Assembly: GCA_026706735.1 (NCBI GenBank)
Contig: JAPOYD010000139.1
Location: 16,956 to 80,955, forward strand
Direction of reading: 5' to 3'
DNA: 64,000 bases
From: Nitrospinota bacterium
Lineage (GTDB): Bacteria; UBA8248
Positions 6,029-52,602 of the stretch are shown here, in pieces. The notes under the pieces are model-generated. The model worked only from the letters and a program-made list of their open reading frames with translations. It was not told the DNA's origin and did not search any database. The position numbers and the translations under genes were made by a program. Numbering within the stretch: position 1 is the first letter of the stretch; the number at the start of each line of letters is the position of its first letter.

Positions 6029-6631
6029 GACCTACATAACTTCCTGAAAACCAACGATATAAATTTCAGACCTGTCCCGACCCCCGTCATCGCTCCGCCG
6101 CTCCCGCCCGGGGATTCCCGAGGGGCGCCCGGAGCGGAAACCTTTACAGAATCTTTATCCACCACCGCCGCTTTCGCTGATACCATTCAATTCGCTTGAT
6201 CAGCCTCGACGGGCGTTTGGAGAGGCAAAGGGTGAATCCGGCGGGGGACGCCTGACCGCTTCGCGCCAAGGCGCAGAGGCGGCGGCGGGCCGGATACGCC
6301 GCGCGGGGTTTGCCGGCCCCGCACACGGTTCTTCCCGCCCTGGAGACGGGAGCGCCATCCCGTCGCGCGGATGCGCACCCGAAACCCGGCCGCTTGTCCG
6401 CCTTTTGGCTCGGGCGGCTCCGGTCGATTCCTCCGGAAGCGGAAAGCCCGAACGCGGGGTCTCCCCGCGCGGCCCATCGCACGCCCCCGAACGCGGCAAT
6501 CGCTCACTCCTGAATCGCGATTGACCCCGACGCGGCCCTCGGAAAGCCTCGAACGCGGCAATCGCTCGCTCATCGGGGTTGTTGAAAAAGCCCCCGATAG
6601 GGGTTGTTGCCCCCCATCGAGAGTGTTCACT

Positions 6632-43419: not shown

Positions 43420-44784
43420 ATGGATGAGCTCAGGGTATTGTCCGTATGCGGCAATCTCGGCTACGGATTCCCCAAAGCCTCGCTCGACAACGGCCTCGCC
43501 CGGCACCCGCACATCATGGGGGCGGACAACGGCTCGACCGACGCGGGCCCCTATTACCTCGGCAGCGGCGATCAGCTCACCAAGCGCGAACAGATTCGCA
43601 GGGACCTGGGCTTTTCGCTGGCCGCCGCCAGAAAGAAGAAGATTCCCTACATCATCGGCTCCGCCGGGACGGCGGGCGGCAACCCCCACGTGGACAGCGT
43701 GCTCGACACGATGCGCGAGTTGTCGAAACGCGATGGGCACCGCTTCAAGCTCGCGGTGATTCGCTCCGAGATGGACAAGGAGTTCGTTAAGCGCGCCGTT
43801 CGGGAAAAAAGAACGCGTACTCTGGGCAAGCTCCCCGAACTCACCGAGGAGATGGTGAACGAGAGCGTGCGCATCGTTGGCCAGATGGGGCTGGAACCCT
43901 TCATGACGGCTCTGGAGGGCGGTGCGGAGGTCGTCCTCGCCGGACGCTCCTGCGACACGGCCATCTACACCTCCTACGCCGCGATGCGCGGGTACGACTT
44001 AGGATTAGCCTTCCACATGGCGAAAATCATCGAGTGCGGCGCGCAGTGCGCCCTGCCCATCGGGGCGAACGACTGCATCCTGGGCACGCTGCGCGAGGAT
44101 CACTTCGAACTCGAGCCGATGAACGAGGGGATGCGCGTGACGCCAAACTCCGTGGCGGCGCACATGATGTACGAACAGCCCGACCCCTATCTGTTCTATG
44201 AACCAGAAGGCATGATCGACCTCAAGGACTCCGAGTTCGAACAACTCGGCGAGCGCCGCGTGCGGGTGAGCGGCAGCCGCTTCGTGCAAGCGCAGACCCC
44301 CACCATCAAGATCGAAGGCGTGCGCTTGAGAGGATACCGCACCATCGCCGTCGCCGGGATGACGGACCCACGGCTGCTCGCGAGTCTCGACGAGGTGGAG
44401 GCGAACGTGAAGAACACCGTGGCGGACATGGTCCGGGGTACGCTCTCGCCCGAGGATTACGAGCTTCGTTTCATCTTCTACGGGCGCGACGGGGTGATGG
44501 GCCGCCCGGCGGCGGATGAATCGGCCGCGCCCCGGGAGGTCGGCGTGGTGATGGAGGCGATCGCCGGGGATCAGACGACGGCGAACGCGGTGCTCTCCCT
44601 CACGCGGAGTACGTTCCTGCACGCGGGCTTCGAGGGGCGGAAGGCCACCGCCGGGAACTTGGCCTTCCCGTTCTCGCCGTCTGATTTCGAGGGCGGGCCG
44701 GTGTATGAGTTCCACATCTATCACTTGGTGGAACTCGAAGACGCCGCAGCGCCCTTCGAAGTCGAATTCGCGCAGGTGGGCTGA
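43420..44784 (+). CDS. AtuA-like protein (DUF1446 family)
   Basis: 454 aa. N-terminus VLSVCGNLGYGF matches the AtuA/DUF1446 RIG-G-GF pattern. A DUF4387-like ORF follows immediately. Confidence 0.6.
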   Translation: MDELRVLSVCGNLGYGFPKASLDNGLARHPHIMGADNGSTDAGPYYLGSGDQLTKREQIRRDLGFSLAAARKKKIPYIIGSAGTAGGNPHVDSVLDTMRELSKRDGHRFKLAVIRSEMDKEFVKRAVREKRTRTLGKLPELTEEMVNESVRIVGQMGLEPFMTALEGGAEVVLAGRSCDTAIYTSYAAMRGYDLGLAFHMAKIIECGAQCALPIGANDCILGTLREDHFELEPMNEGMRVTPNSVAAHMMYEQPDPYLFYEPEGMIDLKDSEFEQLGERRVRVSGSRFVQAQTPTIKIEGVRLRGYRTIAVAGMTDPRLLASLDEVEANVKNTVADMVRGTLSPEDYELRFIFYGRDGVMGRPAADESAAPREVGVVMEAIAGDQTTANAVLSLTRSTFLHAGFEGRKATAGNLAFPFSPSDFEGGPVYEFHIYHLVELEDAAAPFEVEFAQVG

Positions 44785-44786
44785 GC

Positions 44787-45098
44787 GTGGAAAGGCTCTA
44801 CGACCTCGCCGAGGTGTTTCGGAGCAAGAACGCAGGCCCCCTGCACATCACCTTGGATCTGCTGTTCTCCGATGAGTCGACCTACCGGCGCGTGGCCGAC
44901 AGCGAGGCGCTCACGCCGGGCGTGGTTTCTGAGCTTTACGAGATGGCGCCCGAGGAGGTGAAGATCGTCCATTTCGACGCGGCCAACGCCATCAAGATCA
45001 CCATGCCGAGGAAGGGGCCGACCTCGGGCGCGCCTGGCGATCGCGACGTGTACGGAGCGCAGCAGCACGGCCCGCTGCTCGGTCTCATGATTCCCTGA
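44787..45098 (+). CDS. DUF4387-like small protein (AtuA partner)
   Basis: 103 aa. Start lies 2 nt after the AtuA-like stop. Confidence 0.5.
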   Translation: MERLYDLAEVFRSKNAGPLHITLDLLFSDESTYRRVADSEALTPGVVSELYEMAPEEVKIVHFDAANAIKITMPRKGPTSGAPGDRDVYGAQQHGPLLGLMIP

Positions 45099-45126: not shown

Positions 45127-46512
45127 ATGGACGTCGAACGGGTCATCGCGCAAATCGAGGCGGATTTCGAGTCCGCCCACATCGAACGTTTATTGAAATA
45201 TATACGCCAGCCGAGCGTCTCGGCGCTCAACCTCGGCAACGACGAGATGGCGCGGATGCTGGCCGATGAGATCATCGAGGTCGGCGGCGAGGCGGAGGTG
45301 GTGGAGACGGCGGAGTTTCCCGTCGTCTACGGCCTGATCGACGAAGGCGCGGAGCGCACGCTACTCTGCCACGGCCTCTACGACGTGACGCCGGCGGAAG
45401 AGCCCAACTGGATCAACCCTCCCTTCGAACCTCAAATCCAGGAACTCGAAGGCCTGGGGCCCTGCATCGTGGGCCGGGGAGCGGAGGACATGAAGACGGG
45501 CATCGCCTGCGTGATGAACACCGTCTACGCGGCGCGCGCCGCAGGGGAGAAGCTCCCGCTCAACCTCATGTTCGTCCACGAGGCGTCCGAACTCGGAAGC
45601 GGCGGCATCAAGGATTTCTTCCCGCGCTACAAGGAGAAGATGCAAAAGGCGAACGCGGCCTACTGGCTCTGCCCGATGGGGCAGACCGACGGTACGCCCA
45701 TCGTCCCGCTGGGCCTCAAGGGCAACCTGATGGGCAGGCTCTTCTGCCGTCCCGGGGAGTGGGGCGGTCCGGTGGGCAACGAGATTCACGCGCTCAACTG
45801 CAACTGGATAGGCAATCCGGCGGAGCGCATCGTGGAGGCGATCGCCTATCTGCAGGCGAGGCTTGAGGAGATTTATCAAAAAGGCGAAGGCTGGACGCCG
45901 AGCGAGGCCGAAGAAGAACTGTGCCGCAAGCTCGCAGAGCGCATGGACCCCGAAAGGATGAAGCAGAGCCTGGGGGTCGAGCGTTTCCGGCAGGATGATT
46001 TCCACGCCGCCGTCCGCTCGCACCTGTTCAAGGCGGAATTCACGCTTACGGGCCTCCACGCGGGCTTCGTGGGCGAGGGCAAGTCCGTCAAGGTCAGCAT
46101 TCCCTCAGAAGCCCAGGCCGTGGTGAACATGCGCTTCCAGCCGGGAGAGGATCCGGACGAGCGCATCGGGAACGTCCGCAACATTTTGGCTGAGGGCGGA
46201 TACGGCGACGTCGAGTTCGTCGTGAACAACCACTACGCGGGCGGCGGAACGCCTCTGGAGCATCCGCTCATCCAGTGTTTCCTGAAAGCCCATGCGGATA
46301 TGGGCGCGGACCCCGAAGTCTGGCCCGTGCACCCGGCAGGGATGCCCGTGGCCTTGTGGACCGAAGAACTGGGCGTACCCTGGATCGGCGGGCTGCCGTG
46401 CAACGCCATGCGAAAACACGCGGCAAACGAATATGCACAGGTCTCGGGTGTTCTCCAGTCCGAGAAGTTTCTAGCATACCTGTTCGAGGGATTCTCGAAA
46501 CTCACGTATTGA
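45127..46512 (+). CDS. M20/M25/M40 family peptidase (dipeptidase-like)
   Basis: 461 aa; IVGRGAEDMKTG is an M20 hallmark. Confidence 0.8.
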   Translation: MDVERVIAQIEADFESAHIERLLKYIRQPSVSALNLGNDEMARMLADEIIEVGGEAEVVETAEFPVVYGLIDEGAERTLLCHGLYDVTPAEEPNWINPPFEPQIQELEGLGPCIVGRGAEDMKTGIACVMNTVYAARAAGEKLPLNLMFVHEASELGSGGIKDFFPRYKEKMQKANAAYWLCPMGQTDGTPIVPLGLKGNLMGRLFCRPGEWGGPVGNEIHALNCNWIGNPAERIVEAIAYLQARLEEIYQKGEGWTPSEAEEELCRKLAERMDPERMKQSLGVERFRQDDFHAAVRSHLFKAEFTLTGLHAGFVGEGKSVKVSIPSEAQAVVNMRFQPGEDPDERIGNVRNILAEGGYGDVEFVVNNHYAGGGTPLEHPLIQCFLKAHADMGADPEVWPVHPAGMPVALWTEELGVPWIGGLPCNAMRKHAANEYAQVSGVLQSEKFLAYLFEGFSKLTY

Positions 46513-46550: not shown

Positions 46551-47276
46551 TCAATCACCCCCCGCCGGTGGCCAGATGCGCTCGCCGAGACTCGGGGAGC
46601 TGGGCGCGTGGACGAGGGTGTCCACGGCTTGGCGAGAGCGCGGTATCTTCTCCGTCGTGAAATTCTCCTGGAGCGATTCCAGGGATACCCACTCATAGAG
46701 TATCCCGTGCTTCGCCCAGCCCGAGGCCGATACGAGGTTCCGCGCGCCGACGCAGCCTTCCATGCTCGTGAGGCGCGGCATACGCACCTGGGAATACCAA
46801 CAGCCGAGTTCGTCCTCGTTCTCGACGGCGTTGATGTTGAAAGTCCCGAACTGGATGCCGGGGCCCGGCGTGATGCCCGGCGCGCGGGACTTGAACTCAG
46901 GACCATTGATGCGGTTGTGCTCCATGAAGATGCAGGAGCGCGCGCTCATACGCCGCCCGAGCATTTCCCTGTCATCCGCCGTCATCTTTTCCGCCATCTG
47001 TTCGGGGCTGGGGTCCAGGAAGGCGTTCGGCGAGAGCGCGCCGAATAGCATGAGGTACTGAACCCCGGTGGGAACGCTCGCGTCGTCCGTGTGGTGGACG
47101 ACTCCCCGGATCCGCTCCTCACGTTCGGGCGTCACCACGTTCTTCACGTGCGCCGCCCACAGGTAGCCCGGACGCGCAAGCGCTTCGGGGATGTGAATCT
47201 CATGAAGCCAGGATATGTATTGATCCGCGCCCTCTTCGGAAAGGTCATACCATACCGCCCATATTCCTCGGTCCAT
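46551..47276 (-). CDS. hypothetical protein
   Basis: 241 aa, coding-like composition, no recognisable family. Confidence 0.4.
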   Translation of the reverse strand: MDRGIWAVWYDLSEEGADQYISWLHEIHIPEALARPGYLWAAHVKNVVTPEREERIRGVVHHTDDASVPTGVQYLMLFGALSPNAFLDPSPEQMAEKMTADDREMLGRRMSARSCIFMEHNRINGPEFKSRAPGITPGPGIQFGTFNINAVENEDELGCWYSQVRMPRLTSMEGCVGARNLVSASGWAKHGILYEWVSLESLQENFTTEKIPRSRQAVDTLVHAPSSPSLGERIWPPAGGD

Positions 47277-47314: not shown

Positions 47315-47983
47315 TCATTCGTTGGGTTCGGGGAAGGCGTCCGGCCATTTGTCGAGGACTTCCTGCAGATAAGCCTTTAGCTTCGCCGGGTCGGGCCGGA
47401 GGCGGCCGACGTCCTCGACGATTTCCGCTTCGTCGTTCGGCAGCTTGAGAGAATCGTGGTAGCGGTTTCGCATGTTGAAGTAGCTGATGACGAAGGTGAG
47501 CTCCACGAACTCGGCGTCCGTGAAATGCCTCTGCACCTCCTCCGCCACGTCGTCCCGGACCTTGGCGGTGTTGCGTGTCACGTGTTCGGCCCAAAGGACT
47601 GTCGCCTTTTCCCTTGGCGTGAGGAGCGGCGAATCCATGTATGCATCCGACCCGATGGCGGCGACGTGATCTACGGTGATTCCCAGCACACGGCCGAGAG
47701 CGGTGTTGTGCGCGAGTCAGTAGTCGCATCCGTTCAGTTGGCTGGTCTTGATGACGGCGATTTCTTTTATCTTCGAAGACAGCACGGTGCCCAGTCCCTC
47801 GCGCATCAGGGTCTGGACGAGGGGATAGAAGATGCGCGCCAGAAACGGGGAGTGCGCCGTCGCCCGGGTGGAGTTGACCTGCCTGCTTTGGAAGTTGTTC
47901 AGGATGTCGAAGGTGCGCGCAATCTCGCCTCCGGCGCATTCTCTTTCGAGCAAGGGGACTCTGGACACGGGTTGACTCCTCAT
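47315..47983 (-). CDS. AhpD-like / carboxymuconolactone decarboxylase family selenoprotein (in-frame TGA at 47717-47719 read as Sec; start at internal Met preferred)
   Basis: Minus-strand ORFs 47717..48079 and 47315..47689 share a frame. The junction reads KTSQLNGCDY-U-LAHN, the CMD/AhpD S-Q-[IL]-N-G-C-x-Y-C-x-x-x-H motif with Sec at the second Cys. Both halves are CMD-like. Confidence 0.65.
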
Positions 47984-48218
47984 CGAATACGAGTTCCGGG
48001 TTTTTCCGATGAATGGTTCATCTTCCCACAATGAGCACCATCTTTCACTCCGCCCTCGGATGTCGTTCCGGGATGACACGTACGGTGATTCCTGCTAGTT
48101 TTCTTTTTATACGCAGATAAGATGTGAGGCGGATTTAGCGTCCCGGATTCAAGGCCCCTCCTCGAAGGCGGCATGAATGAGGGCGTCGCCTGTTCTATAT
48201 CCGTGAAGAGGGAAGGAC

Positions 48219-48695
48219 GTGCGGAAAGCCGATATTTACACAGCCGTCATTTTTATTGTCTATAGCGTCGTCGGCTTTTTCTATATCATTCCCACGCAGA
48301 TTCAATACGCCATTCCCCCCGAAGAAGTCGTGAACGCCGTCTTTCTGCCTACCTTCTTCCCCACCTCCGCCGTCGTCACATTCGCGTTGGTGAGCGCGAT
48401 GTTTCTGTTCGGGGCTCTCAGGCGGAGTGATGCAGGCGGGAAGGTGATTTCGAGCAAAAGGGCGCTATGCCAGGTCTGCGGCGTTTTCGTTCTTACCTAC
48501 GTCTACATCGAGTCTTTGGCGTATTTCGGCTTTCTGGTGAGCACCCCCGTATTTCTCGCAATTCTAGTTTTTTCCATGGGCACGCGTGACTGGCGCTACG
48601 TCGCGGCGATGTCGATCCTGTTTCCTATCGTGGTGAACTATTTCTTCTGGTTCGCCTTCAAGCTGGCGCTGCCCGAGGGCAGCCTCTTCAGTTAG
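48219..48695 (+). CDS. tctB: tripartite tricarboxylate transporter small subunit TctB
   Basis: 158 aa, 4 TM. Confidence 0.7.
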   Translation: MRKADIYTAVIFIVYSVVGFFYIIPTQIQYAIPPEEVVNAVFLPTFFPTSAVVTFALVSAMFLFGALRRSDAGGKVISSKRALCQVCGVFVLTYVYIESLAYFGFLVSTPVFLAILVFSMGTRDWRYVAAMSILFPIVVNYFFWFAFKLALPEGSLFS

Positions 48696-48702
48696 GGCGC
48701 GT

Positions 48703-50241
48703 ATGTTCGAACAGATAATCCAGGGAGTAACGATGGCGCTCACGTGGCAGGGTCTGGCCATGATTGCGCTGGGCGTCTTCGTGGGCATCACGGTGGGCGC
48801 GATTCCGGGGCTCACCAGCGTAATGGCGACGGCGATCCTGGTTCCCTTCTCCTTTTTCATGCCTCCCGTGCTGGGCATTCCCTTCTTGCTGGGGATTCAC
48901 AAGGGGACGCTCTTCGGCGGCTCCATCCCCGCGATACTGGTGAACACGCCGGGAACCGCGCCCGCGGCGGCGACGTGTATGGACGGGTTTCCGCTCGCGC
49001 AAAAAGGAGAGGCGAGGAGCGCGATCCAGATGGCGCTCTACTCCTCCACCATAGGCGATACTTTCAGCGATCTCGTACTGATTCTCGCGGCGCTTCCGCT
49101 GGCCGCCGTAGCTCTCCTGTTCGGGCCGGCCGAGTTTTTCGGGCTCCTGCTCATGGGGCTGGCCATCATCTCCAGCGTGACGGGCGCCTCCCTGGTGAAG
49201 GGCGTGCTGTCGGCCATCATCGGTCTCCAACTCGGCATGGTGGGCACGGACATCGTCTCGGGCGGGGAGCGCTTTACGTTCGGTCTTCACGGACTGGCCG
49301 AAGGGATAGGGGTGGTTCCCCTGCTCATCGGGCTTTTCGCCGTGAGCGAGGTGTTAATACAGGCGGAAAAAAAGGCCTCCGTCCTCTCCAGCCCGCCCGA
49401 TACCCTGCATCTGCGGGGCGGCAGGACACTCAAGATCATCGAGGTATGGCATTCGGCGCGCACCATCCTGCGCTCGTCCATGATCGGCACTTTCGTCGGC
49501 GCGATTCCGGGCACGGGAGCGGCCATCGCCACCTTCGTGAGCTACGCGGCGGCGAAACGGGCTTCCAAGAAACCCGAAGAATACGGTAAAGGCAGCTACG
49601 AGGGCGTCGCGGCCTCTGAAGCCGCCAACAGCGCCGTCGCGGGCGCGGACCTGATACCCACCCTCACGTTCGGCATTCCCGGGGACCCGAGCGCGGCGAT
49701 CCTCATGGGCGCGTTCATCGCCCAGGGGCTGCGACCGGGCCCGAGCCTCTTCCAGGAACACGCCCCCGTCATGTACGCCATCTTCACCCTGCTCCTGATA
49801 GGGAACCCCATCATGCTGATCCAGGGCTGGCTCTTGACGGGCATGTTCGCCAGGATAGTCAACATCCGGCAGTCGTTGCTGGTGCCGGGCATTATCGTCT
49901 CCTGTCTGGTGGGAGCGTACGTCTATCACAGCAACCTGGGCGACCTCGTTCTCGCGCTCGTCGCGGGCCTGTTCGGATACGGGTTGAGAAAACTCAAATT
50001 TCCGATGGCCCCGCTCGTCATCGCTTTCATCCTGGCACCCCGGGCGGAGGAAGCCTTGCAACAGGCGCTTATCATTTCCGACGGCGATTATTCGGTATTC
50101 ATCACCCGCCCCATCGCGGCGTTTTTCATCGGTATGACCGTACTCATGCTGGTGACGAGCATCTGGAAACGACCTTGGGCCGAGACCTTGAGGCCGCAAC
50201 CGGTAGCTGATTCGAACATTTCAAAGGAGGAACCAAAATGA
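48703..50241 (+). CDS. tctA: tripartite tricarboxylate transporter permease TctA
   Basis: 512 aa; TctA blocks; ATGA overlap with tctC. Confidence 0.9.
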   Translation: MFEQIIQGVTMALTWQGLAMIALGVFVGITVGAIPGLTSVMATAILVPFSFFMPPVLGIPFLLGIHKGTLFGGSIPAILVNTPGTAPAAATCMDGFPLAQKGEARSAIQMALYSSTIGDTFSDLVLILAALPLAAVALLFGPAEFFGLLLMGLAIISSVTGASLVKGVLSAIIGLQLGMVGTDIVSGGERFTFGLHGLAEGIGVVPLLIGLFAVSEVLIQAEKKASVLSSPPDTLHLRGGRTLKIIEVWHSARTILRSSMIGTFVGAIPGTGAAIATFVSYAAAKRASKKPEEYGKGSYEGVAASEAANSAVAGADLIPTLTFGIPGDPSAAILMGAFIAQGLRPGPSLFQEHAPVMYAIFTLLLIGNPIMLIQGWLLTGMFARIVNIRQSLLVPGIIVSCLVGAYVYHSNLGDLVLALVAGLFGYGLRKLKFPMAPLVIAFILAPRAEEALQQALIISDGDYSVFITRPIAAFFIGMTVLMLVTSIWKRPWAETLRPQPVADSNISKEEPK

Positions 50242-51227
50242 TGCGCAAATCATGGAAGATCGCCCTGGCGGTAGTATTGTCGTTCGGGCTCCTCGCTTTC
50301 ACCGCCATGCCCGCTGCGGCGGAGAAGTATCCCTCGAAACCCATCAAGATCATCGTGCCATTAGGCGCGGGCGGTTCGCACGACCTCCATTCGCGCGCCG
50401 TGGCCAGCGTGCTGCACCAGTACATCGGTCAGCCCGCCTACGTGCAGCTCATGCCGGGTGGCGGCGGAAAGATAGGGATGGGAGCGCTCAAGCGCGCCAA
50501 GCCCGACGGCTACACCCTCGCGATGGGCGCGAACAGCCATCTCTACATGTCGCCCCACGTGAAGGACATGGGCTTCGACCCCTTCAAGGATTTCATCCCC
50601 GTGTTCCAGATCAACGAACTGCCCTACATGCTGGCCACGCTGGGGAACCAGCCGTGGAAGAACTTCAAGGAATACATCGCAGCGGCGAAAAAGAGCAAAG
50701 GCAAGATCAAGCACGGCTCCACGGGGACGTATGGCCTGAGCCACACCATGATGCTCAAGATCGCATACGACACGAAGGCGCCGTTGCCCCACGTGCCCTT
50801 CCGCGGCGGCGGCCCGGCCATGAAGGCCATGCTGGGCGGACACGTGCAGACGGCGGGCGCCAACCCGGCGACGGGCGGCGTTCTCTCGAACTACAAGTCC
50901 GGCAAAATCCGAATTCTGGGCGTCGCCGCCGCCAAGCGGTTCCCGCTATTCCCGGACGTGCCAACCTTCAGGGAGCAGGGAGTCGACCTTCTGCTGTCTT
51001 CGAAGCGCATCATCATGGCGCCGGCGGGAACGCCCAAGGACCGCATCGAAATCCTGGAGAAGGCACTGCTCAAGATGGCGAAGGACAAGACCTTCAAGCG
51101 CCTGCTCAGGAAGATGGGCGTCAAGGCCGAGCCTGTCGTCGGCGAGAAGCTCCTGAAAGAGGTGAGAGCGGAATACGAGAGCAACAAGGACATCTACAAG
51201 AACGCAGGGGTGAAGATCAGAAACTGA
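50238..51227 (+). CDS. tctC: TctC/Bug-family substrate-binding protein
   Basis: Signal peptide; YPSKPIKIIVPLGAGGSHD. Confidence 0.85.
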   Translation: MMRKSWKIALAVVLSFGLLAFTAMPAAAEKYPSKPIKIIVPLGAGGSHDLHSRAVASVLHQYIGQPAYVQLMPGGGGKIGMGALKRAKPDGYTLAMGANSHLYMSPHVKDMGFDPFKDFIPVFQINELPYMLATLGNQPWKNFKEYIAAAKKSKGKIKHGSTGTYGLSHTMMLKIAYDTKAPLPHVPFRGGGPAMKAMLGGHVQTAGANPATGGVLSNYKSGKIRILGVAAAKRFPLFPDVPTFREQGVDLLLSSKRIIMAPAGTPKDRIEILEKALLKMAKDKTFKRLLRKMGVKAEPVVGEKLLKEVRAEYESNKDIYKNAGVKIRN

Positions 51228-51319: not shown

Positions 51320-52183
51320 ATGCGGCGCCTGAGCGATCATCTCGTGGCGGAGACGGAATATCTCTGGGCGAACGTGGGCGCGGGCGTCACCGAGGCGGGC
51401 GTGGTGCTCATCGACTGCCCCGTGCGGCCCTCGGATTCTCGGAGCTGGCAGGAAAAACTGAGGGCGCTCAGTCCCAAAGGCATCCGCTGCCGCATTTCGA
51501 CGGATTATCACGGCGACCACACCATCGGCGCCGCGTTCATCAAGGACGCGGGGGTGGTCTCCATCGCGCCGCAGCGCGTATATGATGCGCTCGCTGCCAA
51601 GGAAGACTCTCTCGCCGGGCGCGACACTTTCATCAACACCTTAGAGGACATCGGCGCGCACGGTGAGGCGAGGGAGATCGCAGAGGCCGTTCTTCCCCTT
51701 CCGCAGGTGTGTTTCGATGAGGGCATGACACTCCACTTACATCCCCTGACGTTCGAGATTTACCGCCTGGGCGGCCATACGCCCGCATGCAGTTCGGTGT
51801 ACGTTCCCGAGGAAGGCGTCATCTTCACGGGCGACGTGATGATCAACGAGCCGGGCCCCGGCATGCGTGAGGCGCGTTTTCGGGAATGGATCGGGGCGCT
51901 CGCGTGGATTGAGAGCCTGCCCGCCGCGCACGTCGTCCCCGGCCACGGGGAGATATGCGGAGTAGAGGAAGTGCGGCGCTTCAAAAACGAATTCGAGGAG
52001 ATGTGGGGAATCATGGAAGGATTGGTGAAGAAGGGCATGACGCAGGGTGAAGCCTCAACCGACGCTTCGTTCGAGAAGTTCTTCTGGTCCGATACGAGGC
52101 GCGGTGAATCGTGGGTCGCGCACAGGCGGCGGACATTCCGGCGGGGGCTCGAGAACCTCTACGCGGAGGTGAAGGAGGGTTAG
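51320..52183 (+). CDS. MBL-fold metallo-hydrolase
   Basis: STDYHGDHTIGAAF HxHxDH-type motif. 287 aa. Confidence 0.75.
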   Translation: MRRLSDHLVAETEYLWANVGAGVTEAGVVLIDCPVRPSDSRSWQEKLRALSPKGIRCRISTDYHGDHTIGAAFIKDAGVVSIAPQRVYDALAAKEDSLAGRDTFINTLEDIGAHGEAREIAEAVLPLPQVCFDEGMTLHLHPLTFEIYRLGGHTPACSSVYVPEEGVIFTGDVMINEPGPGMREARFREWIGALAWIESLPAAHVVPGHGEICGVEEVRRFKNEFEEMWGIMEGLVKKGMTQGEASTDASFEKFFWSDTRRGESWVAHRRRTFRRGLENLYAEVKEG

Positions 52184-52185
52184 GG

Positions 52186-52602
52186 ATGCGAGCGGAAGAG
52201 AAGAAGCTGGGCCGCGTCTTTCATCTGGAATTCGATGAGGGCGATGATTTTTTCGGGGAGTTCGAGCGCTTCGTGATGGAGAAGAACATACGGAGCGCCT
52301 CGCTCATCGTGTTCGGCGCGCTCAAGGAATCGGACATCCGCACGGGGTTCAGGGAAGTCATCGGCCCCTCGGCGCGGCGCTATTTCCACGACTGGCGCGA
52401 ACTCATCGCCGTGGGCAACATCTCTTGGCCCGAACAGCCGCCCGCCGTCCGTGACGATGAGACGTGGGAAGAACCCCGGCCCTACATCCACTTACACCTG
52501 GCGCTCAGCGGCGGCCCCTATCAACCAGGCGAAGTGCTCGTCGGCCACCTGAGCGGGGGCGTCGTGAAGGGCATGTTCGCCGAAGTGCACGAGTTCGTGT
52601 GA
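52186..52602 (+). CDS. PPC (DUF296) domain protein
   Basis: 138 aa from ATG 52186; stop of the upstream gene overlaps. Confidence 0.5.
   Translation: MRAEEKKLGRVFHLEFDEGDDFFGEFERFVMEKNIRSASLIVFGALKESDIRTGFREVIGPSARRYFHDWRELIAVGNISWPEQPPAVRDDETWEEPRPYIHLHLALSGGPYQPGEVLVGHLSGGVVKGMFAEVHEFV

Follow-up and report, generated by a model that had tools for sequence, protein, structure and literature searches.

A selenoprotein gene of the AhpD/CMD family lies on the minus strand of this 64-kb window (the whole stretch of DNA that was analysed). It has been overlooked by gene callers, and the two short ORFs found at its location are one gene. The complete gene extends from 47968 to 47315, with a GTG start, 217 sense codons, predicted Sec as residue 84, and a TGA stop at 47317-47315. 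A single internal TGA interrupts an otherwise continuous frame. A sequence-only reading had placed the ORFs 48079..47717 and 47689..47315 in one minus-strand frame, joined by the TGA (plus-strand 47717-47719) and nine sense codons, and this arrangement holds. The TGA is the only interruption, no frameshift is required to join the ORFs, and read-through gives the product ...KTSQLNGCDY-U-LAHNTALGRVLG... The preferred interpretation, with a probability of roughly 0.88, is one gene for a 217-residue thiol-selenol oxidoreductase with an AhpD-like/CMD fold, in which UGA 84 would be read as Sec under the direction of a downstream stem-loop.

For Sec insertion at codon 84, the substrate, and the reductant, we infer the following scheme. 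SelB and tRNA-Sec would decode UGA 84, guided by a small stem-loop within the coding sequence 20-40 nt downstream. Sec would take the second position of the C-x-x-C redox motif, the nucleophile site (Cys133) of Mycobacterium tuberculosis AhpD. Cys81 would resolve the mixed selenenyl-sulfide by forming a Se-S bond within the protein, and Glu69, Tyr83, and His87 would make up the proton relay. The most likely substrate for reduction is a peroxide or an oxidised partner of the peroxiredoxin type, and a cellular dithiol would recycle the enzyme.

Active site, family, and possible chemistry

The conserved residues of the predicted protein place it among AhpD-like proteins. The Pfam CMD domain PF02627 extends across the UGA (residues 65-133, 30.4 bits against a gathering cutoff of 23). 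The active-site motif E69-x11-C81-D-Y83-U84-L-A-H87 (47708..47764, minus strand), recognized from sequence and homologue conservation, contains the AhpD-type proton-relay residues, and E69, C81, Y83, C84, and H87 are invariant or near-invariant across homologues. The relay pattern of Clarke et al. 2011, Glu-x11-Cys-x-x-Cys with Tyr or His at the third position, is present, and E69, C81, Y83, and U84 are canonically spaced. The relay residues align to Glu36, Cys48, Tyr50, Cys51, and His55 of PA0269, but the window His is one residue closer, and His55 of PA0269 stands opposite Asn88. The window protein has U-L-A-H in place of the C-x-x-C-x-x-x-H pattern with His at +4. The position of this His at +3 had been correctly pointed out in the sequence-only reading, but it is no anomaly, since it is invariant throughout the subfamily. 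Neither the C-x-x-C motif nor the relay residues are present in gamma-carboxymuconolactone decarboxylase proper (PMC3141380). Because C-x-x-U occurs in the window protein together with Glu, Tyr, and His, this protein falls on the AhpD-like side and is no decarboxylase.

The nearest NCBIfam models are protein or selenoprotein relatives of AhpD/YciW. Against TIGR01926 ('peroxidase-related enzyme') the window protein scores 59.0 bits, compared to a cutoff of 81.8 and a score of 78.5 for P0065, a Cys-form relative. It is thus a close outlier of TIGR01926 and a non-member by the NCBI threshold. Scores are 60.2 bits for NF053654 (GroundWater_YciW) and 22.6 bits for NF041238 (AhpD_rel_CFYUT), against equivalog cutoffs of 310 and 175, respectively. 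The subfamily also has a C-terminal extension of about 45 residues that closes in an invariant W-P-x-x-F-P. The motif C-x-Y-U-x-x-H-N-T and the WPxxFP tail, found in a protein that scores under all curated model cutoffs, arguably define a distinct subfamily of AhpD-like selenoproteins. P0065, which is 53% identical and serves as a proxy for the window protein, models as an AhpD-like fold (pLDDT 89.4), and its top PDB matches are 6K40 (Deinococcus radiodurans AhpD), 2PRR, 2OYO, 3C1L, and PA0269. The model, which is of this proxy only, predicts the all-helical AhpD-like fold with its two-helix catalytic hairpin.

The gene downstream is a likely operon partner of the Sec gene. It encodes a 241-aa tandem ferredoxin-like (Dabb-repeat) protein (46551..47276, minus strand), begins 38 nt past the Sec-gene stop, and has its own GAGGAG Shine-Dalgarno sequence. 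This adjacency holds for all orthologs, for the paralog clade, and for some Rhodospirillales. It is not found everywhere, since homologues of the 241-aa protein in Chloroflexi do not lie beside CMD genes. The protein has no Pfam or NCBIfam family match, but its model (pLDDT 92.5) has fold matches to chalcone isomerase, ABM-type monooxygenases, and 2PGC. It is a lineage-restricted, uncharacterised gene, and a tandem-domain relative was also found. Neither ahpC nor Prx is present among the eight neighboring genes scanned.

It is possible, but unlikely, that the selenoprotein carries out a chemistry other than reduction of a peroxide or peroxiredoxin. The protein could, for example, carry out reductive dehalogenation in the manner of Bmp8, or it could reduce a hydroperoxide or other intermediate made by the Dabb-repeat neighbor. 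Structural matches include the Bmp8 debrominase (TM 0.77 normalised to target), but its identity is just 17-19% and several AhpD-like structures score higher. Placement outside every curated AhpD equivalog, the shifted His, and the family-specific WPxxFP extension would all be consistent with another chemistry. On the other hand, the Glu-x11-Cys-x-Tyr-Cys/Sec relay fits PA0269, whose measured peroxidase activity is weak. The conserved tandem ferredoxin-like neighbor, with cofactor-free oxygenases among its fold relatives, also points toward a different substrate, but in Chloroflexi the partner gene is unlinked to CMD genes. The names of related MAGs, and only their names, hint at host- or sponge-associated sources. 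The neighboring genes scanned include no halogenase and give no other pathway context.

A more specific version of this idea is more doubtful still. The Sec CMD protein and the 241-aa neighbor might form a two-component redox module with new chemistry in UBA8248/'Nitrospinota' and some Rhodospirillales. The selenoenzyme might then reduce a hydroperoxide or oxidised product of a cofactor-free, oxygenase-like partner, or it might act as a selenium-dependent, Bmp8-like reductive dehalogenase. If true, either activity would put Sec on the CMD fold to a new enzymatic use, beyond another AhpD.

The UGA codon and its downstream hairpins

The active-site UGA (47717..47719, minus strand) almost certainly encodes selenocysteine (U84), judging from the alternation of TGA and TGC at the aligned codon and from the Cys of full-length homologues. 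Codon 84 is TGA in about 59 of the 76 related loci, which come from several phyla, and it is TGC (Cys) in about 15, a pattern that chance could not plausibly produce. Cys stands exactly in the UGA column of full-length homologues with about 50% identity, in the context NGCxYC-YAHNT. Alignment with the CMD family thus confirms the C-x-x-U register that the sequence-only reading had proposed.

Synonymous variation is suppressed just downstream of the UGA. Codons +3 to +13 (47678..47710, minus strand) form the 11-codon stretch with the lowest synonymous diversity in the gene, with a value of 0.102 compared to 0.299 gene-wide (20 orthologs; permutation p ~1e-4). A pooled synonymous-identity profile over all Sec clades has no signal because the hairpin sequence differs clade by clade.

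Three overlapping hairpins can be drawn in this region, and the SECIS of the window gene is most likely the one designated C. Candidates were compared with the bSECIS criteria of PMC13188914, namely a loop of 3-9 nt, an upper stem of 4-16 bp, a G in the first two loop positions, a distance of 16-37 nt from the UGA, and an MFE <= -7.5 kcal/mol. Hairpin C (47699..47681, minus strand; 5'-UCUCGGC[CGUGU]GCUGGGA-3') was found with RNAalifold on the ortholog clade. It has 7 bp, its loop starts 24 nt past the UGA, its energy is -8.5 kcal/mol (synonymous-shuffle p 0.014-0.038), and it agrees with all four bSECIS criteria. All seven pairs form in 16 of the 18 unique orthologs and six of seven form in the other two. 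Every ortholog change falls in the loop or keeps pairing, such as the change of U21-A39 to G-C in L013. A SECIS downstream of the UGA, as the sequence-only reading expected, is predicted by the bSECIS criteria in the form of this overlapping hairpin, but Rfam has no SECIS family match at either the gathering threshold or E <= 10.

Hairpin A (47686..47701, minus strand) appears to be the family-wide SECIS hairpin, with a GGYC loop on a Gly codon 21 nt past the UGA. It is degraded in the clade of the window, and in the window itself it has four of six pairs and -0.9 kcal/mol. In the other Sec clades it forms a clean stem with a GGUC tetraloop, at -8.6 to -15.5 kcal/mol. Its closing pair 24-29 is formed in 42 of 42 Sec forms (C-G in 21, U-A in 21) and in none of the 14 Cys forms, although the covariation statistics include no correction for phylogeny. 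The position-specific hairpin is also stronger in Sec forms than in Cys forms (Mann-Whitney p = 0.013). Compared across clades, the predicted SECIS is remodelled within one family, from a covarying GGUC-loop hairpin in most clades to one that overlaps it with an offset of about 3 nt in the clade of the window. This example may help in tuning bSECIS predictors.

Hairpin B (47686..47711, minus strand) is the one proposed in the sequence-only reading, in which GCACA/UGUGC closes an inner CCG/CGG stem. It is present in the window, with 8/8 pairs and -9.9 kcal/mol, but it is not conserved as a SECIS. Orthologs form only 5-7 of the eight pairs, and family-wide 57% of cells pair, which is not above shuffles (489/500). 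It was also rejected on the basis of its CUCU loop, which is without the required G, and its upper stem of only 3 bp. In the window, hairpins B and C compete and are mutually exclusive, and it is from the comparisons above that we infer which of the overlapping hairpins SelB uses. Plain MFE tests are uninformative because the coding sequence is GC-rich. The MFE of the 63 nt past the UGA is not above dinucleotide shuffles (z = 0.48), and for the 45 nt past the UGA Sec and Cys forms behave alike against synonymous-codon shuffles (p = 0.38).

The selenium competence of the source organism rests on close relatives, since selA, selB, selD, and tRNA-Sec (selC) are all absent from the 64-kb window. 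BSepDB lists about 50 selenoprotein genes per genome for the GTDB lineage UBA8248, "Nitrospinota". The MAG FO_M_Nitrospinota_01, which holds the 83%-identical ortholog L013, has 54 in the same database. AhpD-like Sec proteins had been described in the sequence-only reading as known in Deltaproteobacteria. They are a published family, but they are not specific to that group. Family loci occur in UBA8248/'Nitrospinota', Tectomicrobia, Rhodospirillales, and Burkholderiales, and they are plentiful in marine metagenomes.

Reading of UGA 47719-47717 as a standard amino acid (Cys, Trp, or Gly), through near-cognate decoding or a reassigned code, is very improbable. The invisibility of Sec machinery in the window would fit such decoding, but the lineage is documented as rich in selenoprotein genes. 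TGA is the commonest normal stop in the window and also terminates the Sec gene itself, and therefore the genetic code has not been reassigned. The database entry for one homologue, P0072, has Trp in the UGA column, but this is most simply the result of a translation table 4 gene call. The codon alternates only with the Cys codon TGC, which is the signature of Sec/Cys pairs, and the hairpin closing pair is restricted to TGA forms.

Gene boundaries and selection

The start of the Sec gene is supported by codon alternation and by a conserved ribosome binding site. The start codon at 47968 varies between GTG and ATG among 19 orthologs, and a purine-rich Shine-Dalgarno sequence is kept 6-8 nt 5' of it in all of them. 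In the window this is AGGAG (47976..47980, minus strand), 7 nt 5' of the GTG. The sequence-only reading had taken the N-terminus from the ORF beginning at 48079, and this start is rejected in favor of the shorter protein. An ATG at 47983, upstream of the GTG, is missing in many orthologs and was also rejected. A scan for consensus promoters and terminators gave no match. The in-frame TGA at 52600-52602 also lies near a Cys, but it is a normal stop codon between two genes.

The 124-aa ORF (47315..47689, minus strand) is a spurious call that corresponds to a C-terminal fragment, and public ortholog records carry the same fragment. More than 50 database clusters are such 124-aa fragments, some of them titled 'carboxymuconolactone decarboxylase family protein'. 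Gene callers thus annotate the locus and its orthologs as if the TGA were a true stop, giving an 83-aa N-terminal protein and a 124-aa C-terminal protein that might assemble, or of which only one half might be functional. This is slightly less probable even than decoding as a standard amino acid. The presumed start of the second protein, GTG 47689, has no Shine-Dalgarno sequence, is the Val codon +10, and sits inside the conserved hairpin. The nine codons from the TGA to this GTG are conserved and encode the invariant A-H-N-T...G. A split here would sever the catalytic CxxC/H helix, and the Cys-form relatives are single polypeptides.

Both halves of the gene are under purifying selection, as indicated by dN/dS values against orthologs of 0.04-0.12 upstream of the UGA and 0.05-0.12 downstream, with dS up to >1. 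A pseudogene newly created by a nonsense mutation, or an error of sequencing or assembly, would account for an in-frame stop and nothing more. The conservation data effectively refute this reading, as the same TGA recurs in about 59 assemblies independent of one another, closed long-read chromosomes among them, with dN/dS of about 0.1 on both sides. Together with PF02627 spanning the UGA and the alternation of TGA and TGC, selection on both halves bears out the central claim of the sequence-only reading, a single AhpD/CMD-family selenoprotein.

The gene is biologically unsurprising, given a family known since 2005 and a lineage already catalogued among the most selenoprotein-rich. Its recognition adds a well-supported member to the AhpD-like selenoproteins and mends the annotation of dozens of public genomes, where the orthologs appear as 124-aa fragments labelled 'CMD family' or hypothetical.

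Comparison with known systems

AhpD-like selenoproteins with a CxxU motif are a published family (PMC1088965, PMC2398784, PMC13188914). The closest parallel is with those described by Zhang, Fomenko & Gladyshev 2005 and in the GOS study ('AhpD-like 1', COG2128/YciW), a family that a 2026 review equates with TIGR01926. They have the CMD/AhpD fold in common with the window protein. In both, Sec is second in the C-x-x-C motif, Cys homologues exist, a SECIS-like hairpin with G in the loop lies directly 3', and members are plentiful in uncultured marine and environmental bacteria. The window protein differs in falling below the TIGR01926 cutoff, in having His at +3 rather than +4, and in its C-terminal extension. 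The CMD-like selenoproteins (PF02627, CxxU; 'AhpD-like 2') and the families NF053654 and NF041238 share with it the CxxU motif and a PF02627 match above the gathering score, and these two families are the best NCBIfam matches. However, the window protein is far under their equivalog cutoffs and is hence outside those specific families.

Bmp8, a thiol-dependent bromopyrrole debrominase (6OHI), belongs to the same CMD fold class and uses catalytic Cys chemistry. The identity is low, as given above, and a bmp-type cluster is absent from the neighborhood. The two proteins resemble each other in fold only.

The Cys-type AhpD structures (M. tuberculosis AhpD; Pseudomonas aeruginosa PA0269, 2O4D/2IJC/7XW1; D. 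radiodurans DR_1765, 6K40) share the two-helix motif Glu-x11-Cys-x-(Tyr/His)-Cys, and the P0065 fold matches them with TM 0.81-0.89 normalised to target. Compared to these proteins, the window protein has Sec for the second Cys, a His one residue closer, N- and C-terminal additions, and no adjacent ahpC. In Burkholderia thailandensis AhpD the first Cys is more important, which counts against a nucleophile role for the second Cys or Sec. In M. tuberculosis AhpD, by contrast, the second Cys (Cys133) is the exposed nucleophile that attacks the oxidised partner (PMC6626918), and this is the position that Sec would occupy in the window protein.

A single gene interrupted by an in-frame UGA

ORF callers have split what is almost certainly a real selenoprotein gene. 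On the minus strand, 48079..47315 is a single frame whose sole interruption is a TGA (plus 47717-47719), with the conceptual translation ...KEIAVIKTSQLNGCDY*LAHNTALGRVLGITVDH... around it. No frameshift is required to join the two halves, so the proposal of the sequence-only reading that both ORFs belong to one gene is borne out. That reading placed the gene at 47315-48079; the end and the frame hold, but the start is better assigned, from its upstream sequence and orthologs, to GTG 47968, 83 codons 5' of the UGA. This GTG follows a Shine-Dalgarno AGGAG with 7-nt spacing. Across 19 orthologs the codon at this position is GTG or ATG, always with a purine-rich Shine-Dalgarno 6-8 nt 5' of it, and the ATG at 47983 is absent in many. 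GTG 47689, where the called 124-aa ORF begins, was rejected as a start since it lacks a preceding Shine-Dalgarno; it is the Val codon at +10 after the UGA. The predicted gene is therefore 47968..47315 (minus strand); it starts with GTG, has 217 sense codons, the 84th of which is the UGA, and stops at TGA. TGA is the most frequent ordinary stop in the window and also terminates this gene, so the code in use is the standard one. A second candidate selenoprotein site at plus 52600-52602 (in-frame TGA, then G-C) was rejected as an ordinary stop; the gene after it begins at ATG 52612.

Selenocysteine and cysteine forms of the family

With the UGA replaced by Cys, one Pfam CMD (PF02627) match above the gathering score covers residues 65-133 and crosses the UGA. 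The top NCBIfam matches are AhpD/YciW-type "(seleno)protein" and "peroxidase-related" models, every score being under cutoff. Full-length relatives (about 222 aa, about 50% identity) carry the motif NGCxYC-YAHNT with Cys exactly in the UGA column. We compared 76 loci, drawn from contigs that represent one genome per species: about 59 have TGA at the aligned codon and about 15 have TGC. The suggestion that Sec occupies the second Cys of a C-x-x-C motif is thus supported, and the alignment confirms its register. The loci with TGA belong to Nitrospinota/UBA8248, Tectomicrobia, Rhodospirillales, Burkholderiales and other Betaproteobacteria. In a distance tree, one Cys clade lies inside the Sec forms and another outside. 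Between orthologs (dS 0.35 to >1), dN/dS is 0.04-0.12 on the 5' side of the UGA and 0.05-0.12 on the 3' side for most pairs, indicating that both halves are translated and constrained. The His at +3 rather than +4, remarked on earlier, is indeed present but is no oddity: it is invariant in the subfamily, as are Tyr83, a C-terminal W-P-x-x-F-P tail and Glu69, which precedes the first Cys by 12 residues.

The mis-annotation of orthologs is systematic, extending to dozens of MAGs and including closed chromosomes. A search of 5.8 billion proteins, which also yielded the full-length relatives above, found more than 50 clusters of identically cut 124-aa fragments from Nitrospinae/Nitrospinota MAGs, some named "carboxymuconolactone decarboxylase family protein". 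Public records hold the orthologs only as such fragments (e.g. the database proteins P0006, P0046 and P0056, under that name or "hypothetical protein"). One full-length homologue, P0072, has Trp in the Sec column (NGCAYWFAHNT), most simply explained by gene calling under translation table 4, with TGA read as Trp.

No tRNA-Sec or sel genes were seen within the 64-kb window. Its neighbouring genes share 90-99% protein identity with those of ortholog-bearing MAGs. For one such MAG, FO_M_Nitrospinota_01 (83% identical ortholog at locus L013; GTDB phylum UBA8248), BSepDB lists 54 selenoprotein genes, and for its sister MAGs 48-50.

Further Sec-encoding copies were observed. Ortholog-bearing genomes have a second paralog, about 60% identical (NGC[DE]Y-TGA-LGHNT; loci L019-L022, L024, L026, L055, L065 and L066, about position 6220 in most), with a very clean SECIS hairpin (GGUC loop, -12 to -15 kcal/mol) and its own partner-gene copy upstream. 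Some Rhodospirillales have two copies within one 12-kb stretch (L056, L057, L060 and L062, two motif matches each), and one copy reads N-D-C-N-H-U-I-S-H-N-T, with His replacing Tyr before Sec. Database proteins of about 345-366 aa (P0001-P0005 and others) are N-terminally shortened calls of a tandem two-CMD-domain protein. This was confirmed on DNA for P0002 (L077:1150-2562, TGA at 1399-1401), while all that was seen for P0003 was a gene of 83 residues upstream. The motif of the first domain is NTCDY-TGA-LAHNT; that of the second is degenerate (NGSAYCLAENT, Ser for the first Cys and Glu for His).

Hairpins downstream of the UGA

Generic folding energy is uninformative as a test of recoding, while position-specific analysis is informative. 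The 63 nt 3' of the UGA show no folding advantage over shuffles, and the actual codons show none over synonymous shuffles, whether in Sec or in Cys forms. Among 20 orthologs, the lowest-diversity synonymous 11-codon stretch of the entire gene begins at codon +3 (0.102 vs 0.299; permutation p about 1e-4).

Hairpin A, whose GGUC/GGYC loop falls on a conserved Gly codon 21 nt beyond the UGA, is clean in most Sec clades (-8.6 to -15.5 kcal/mol), for example GUCGCUU[GGUC]AAGCGGC in distant clades and GGCGCUC[GGUC]GAG-A-CGCC in the paralog clade. It is stronger in Sec than in Cys forms (Mann-Whitney p = 0.013). In counts that ignore phylogeny, 42 unique Sec sequences divide into 21 with C-G and 21 with U-A at the loop-closing pair (none unpaired), there are 34 double-sided changes against 16 expected (0/500 shuffles), and the pair forms in 0/14 Cys forms. 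U-U mismatches degrade hairpin A in the window's clade: most orthologs have -4.4 kcal/mol and the window -0.9.

In this clade RNAalifold predicts an overlapping hairpin C (47699..47681, minus strand; nt 21-27 paired with 33-39, UCUCGGC[CGKGY]GCUGGGA), at -7.1 to -8.9 kcal/mol (synonymous-shuffle p 0.014-0.038). It is intact in all orthologs, and its variation is confined to the loop or preserves pairing, as in U-A to G-C in L013. By the published criteria (PMC13188914), a bSECIS element has a 3-9 nt loop with G in its first two positions, a stem of 4-16 bp, a distance of 16-37 nt to the UGA and MFE <= -7.5 kcal/mol; hairpin C agrees with all four. An Rfam search gave no family match. The GCACA/UGUGC hairpin proposed earlier (hairpin B, 47711..47686) is perfectly complementary in the window (-9.9 kcal/mol) and is mutually exclusive with hairpin C there, but it is not conserved: orthologs lose 1-3 of its 8 pairs, family-wide pairing is 57% (equalled by 489/500 shuffles), and its loop is without G.

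Proposed function and comparison with known selenoproteins

Selenoenzymes usually have Sec as the nucleophile. By sequence, PA0269 and several "peroxidase-related" proteins are the window protein's closest relatives of solved structure. A model of a 53%-identical Cys form, used as a stand-in (pLDDT 89.4, pTM 0.86), matches D. radiodurans AhpD, 2PRR, 2OYO, 3C1L, PA0269 and the debrominase Bmp8. The PA0269 proton relay of Glu36, Cys48, Tyr50, Cys51 and His55 (PMC3141380) corresponds to Glu69, Cys81, Tyr83, Sec84 and His87, the His being one residue closer here. In M. tuberculosis AhpD the exposed second Cys (Cys133) attacks Cys61 of AhpC (PMC6626918), and by this analogy we infer that Sec84 sits in the nucleophile position. 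The Sec84 selenolate would likely attack a peroxide or oxidised partner, the adduct would likely be resolved by Cys81 to give a Se-S bond, and a dithiol reductant would likely recycle the enzyme. A scan of eight neighbouring genes found no ahpC or Prx.

A single feature hints at more than a generic AhpD role: linkage to a 241-aa partner gene (47276..46551, minus strand), 38 nt downstream with its own Shine-Dalgarno. Every ortholog has this gene beside the Sec gene, as do the paralog clade and some Rhodospirillales; Chloroflexi homologues are not beside a CMD gene. The family's 642 matches are all named "hypothetical", and no Pfam or NCBIfam model matches the partner. Its predicted structure is a tandem ferredoxin-like (Dabb-repeat) fold (pLDDT 92.5), closest to bacterial chalcone isomerase, ABM-type/anthrone-oxidase-like proteins and the uncharacterised marine protein 2PGC. 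About 17 orthologous loci also keep the divergent upstream TctB-TctA-TctC tripartite tricarboxylate transporter operon (48219-51227, plus strand), an M20 peptidase (45127-46512), AtuA/DUF4387 (43420-45098) and a metallo-beta-lactamase-fold gene (51320-52183).

A 2005 study of the Sargasso Sea described AhpD-like selenoproteins with CxxU (27 sequences, and another 4 termed "CMD domain-containing"; PMC1088965). In the GOS data they rank among the most common selenoproteins (299 AhpD-like 1 and 70 AhpD-like 2; PMC2398784), and a 2026 review enters them under TIGR01926, PF02627 and NF041238 (PMC13188914). The window protein is a member of the CMD superfamily by Pfam; against TIGR01926 it scores 59 and its Cys relative 78.5, where the cutoff is 81.8. 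Little here is new, since both the family and the large selenoproteome of the lineage are already published. The sequence-only reading was correct in substance, and the protein is best described as a new addition, within a distinct unmodelled subfamily, to a known kind of selenoprotein.
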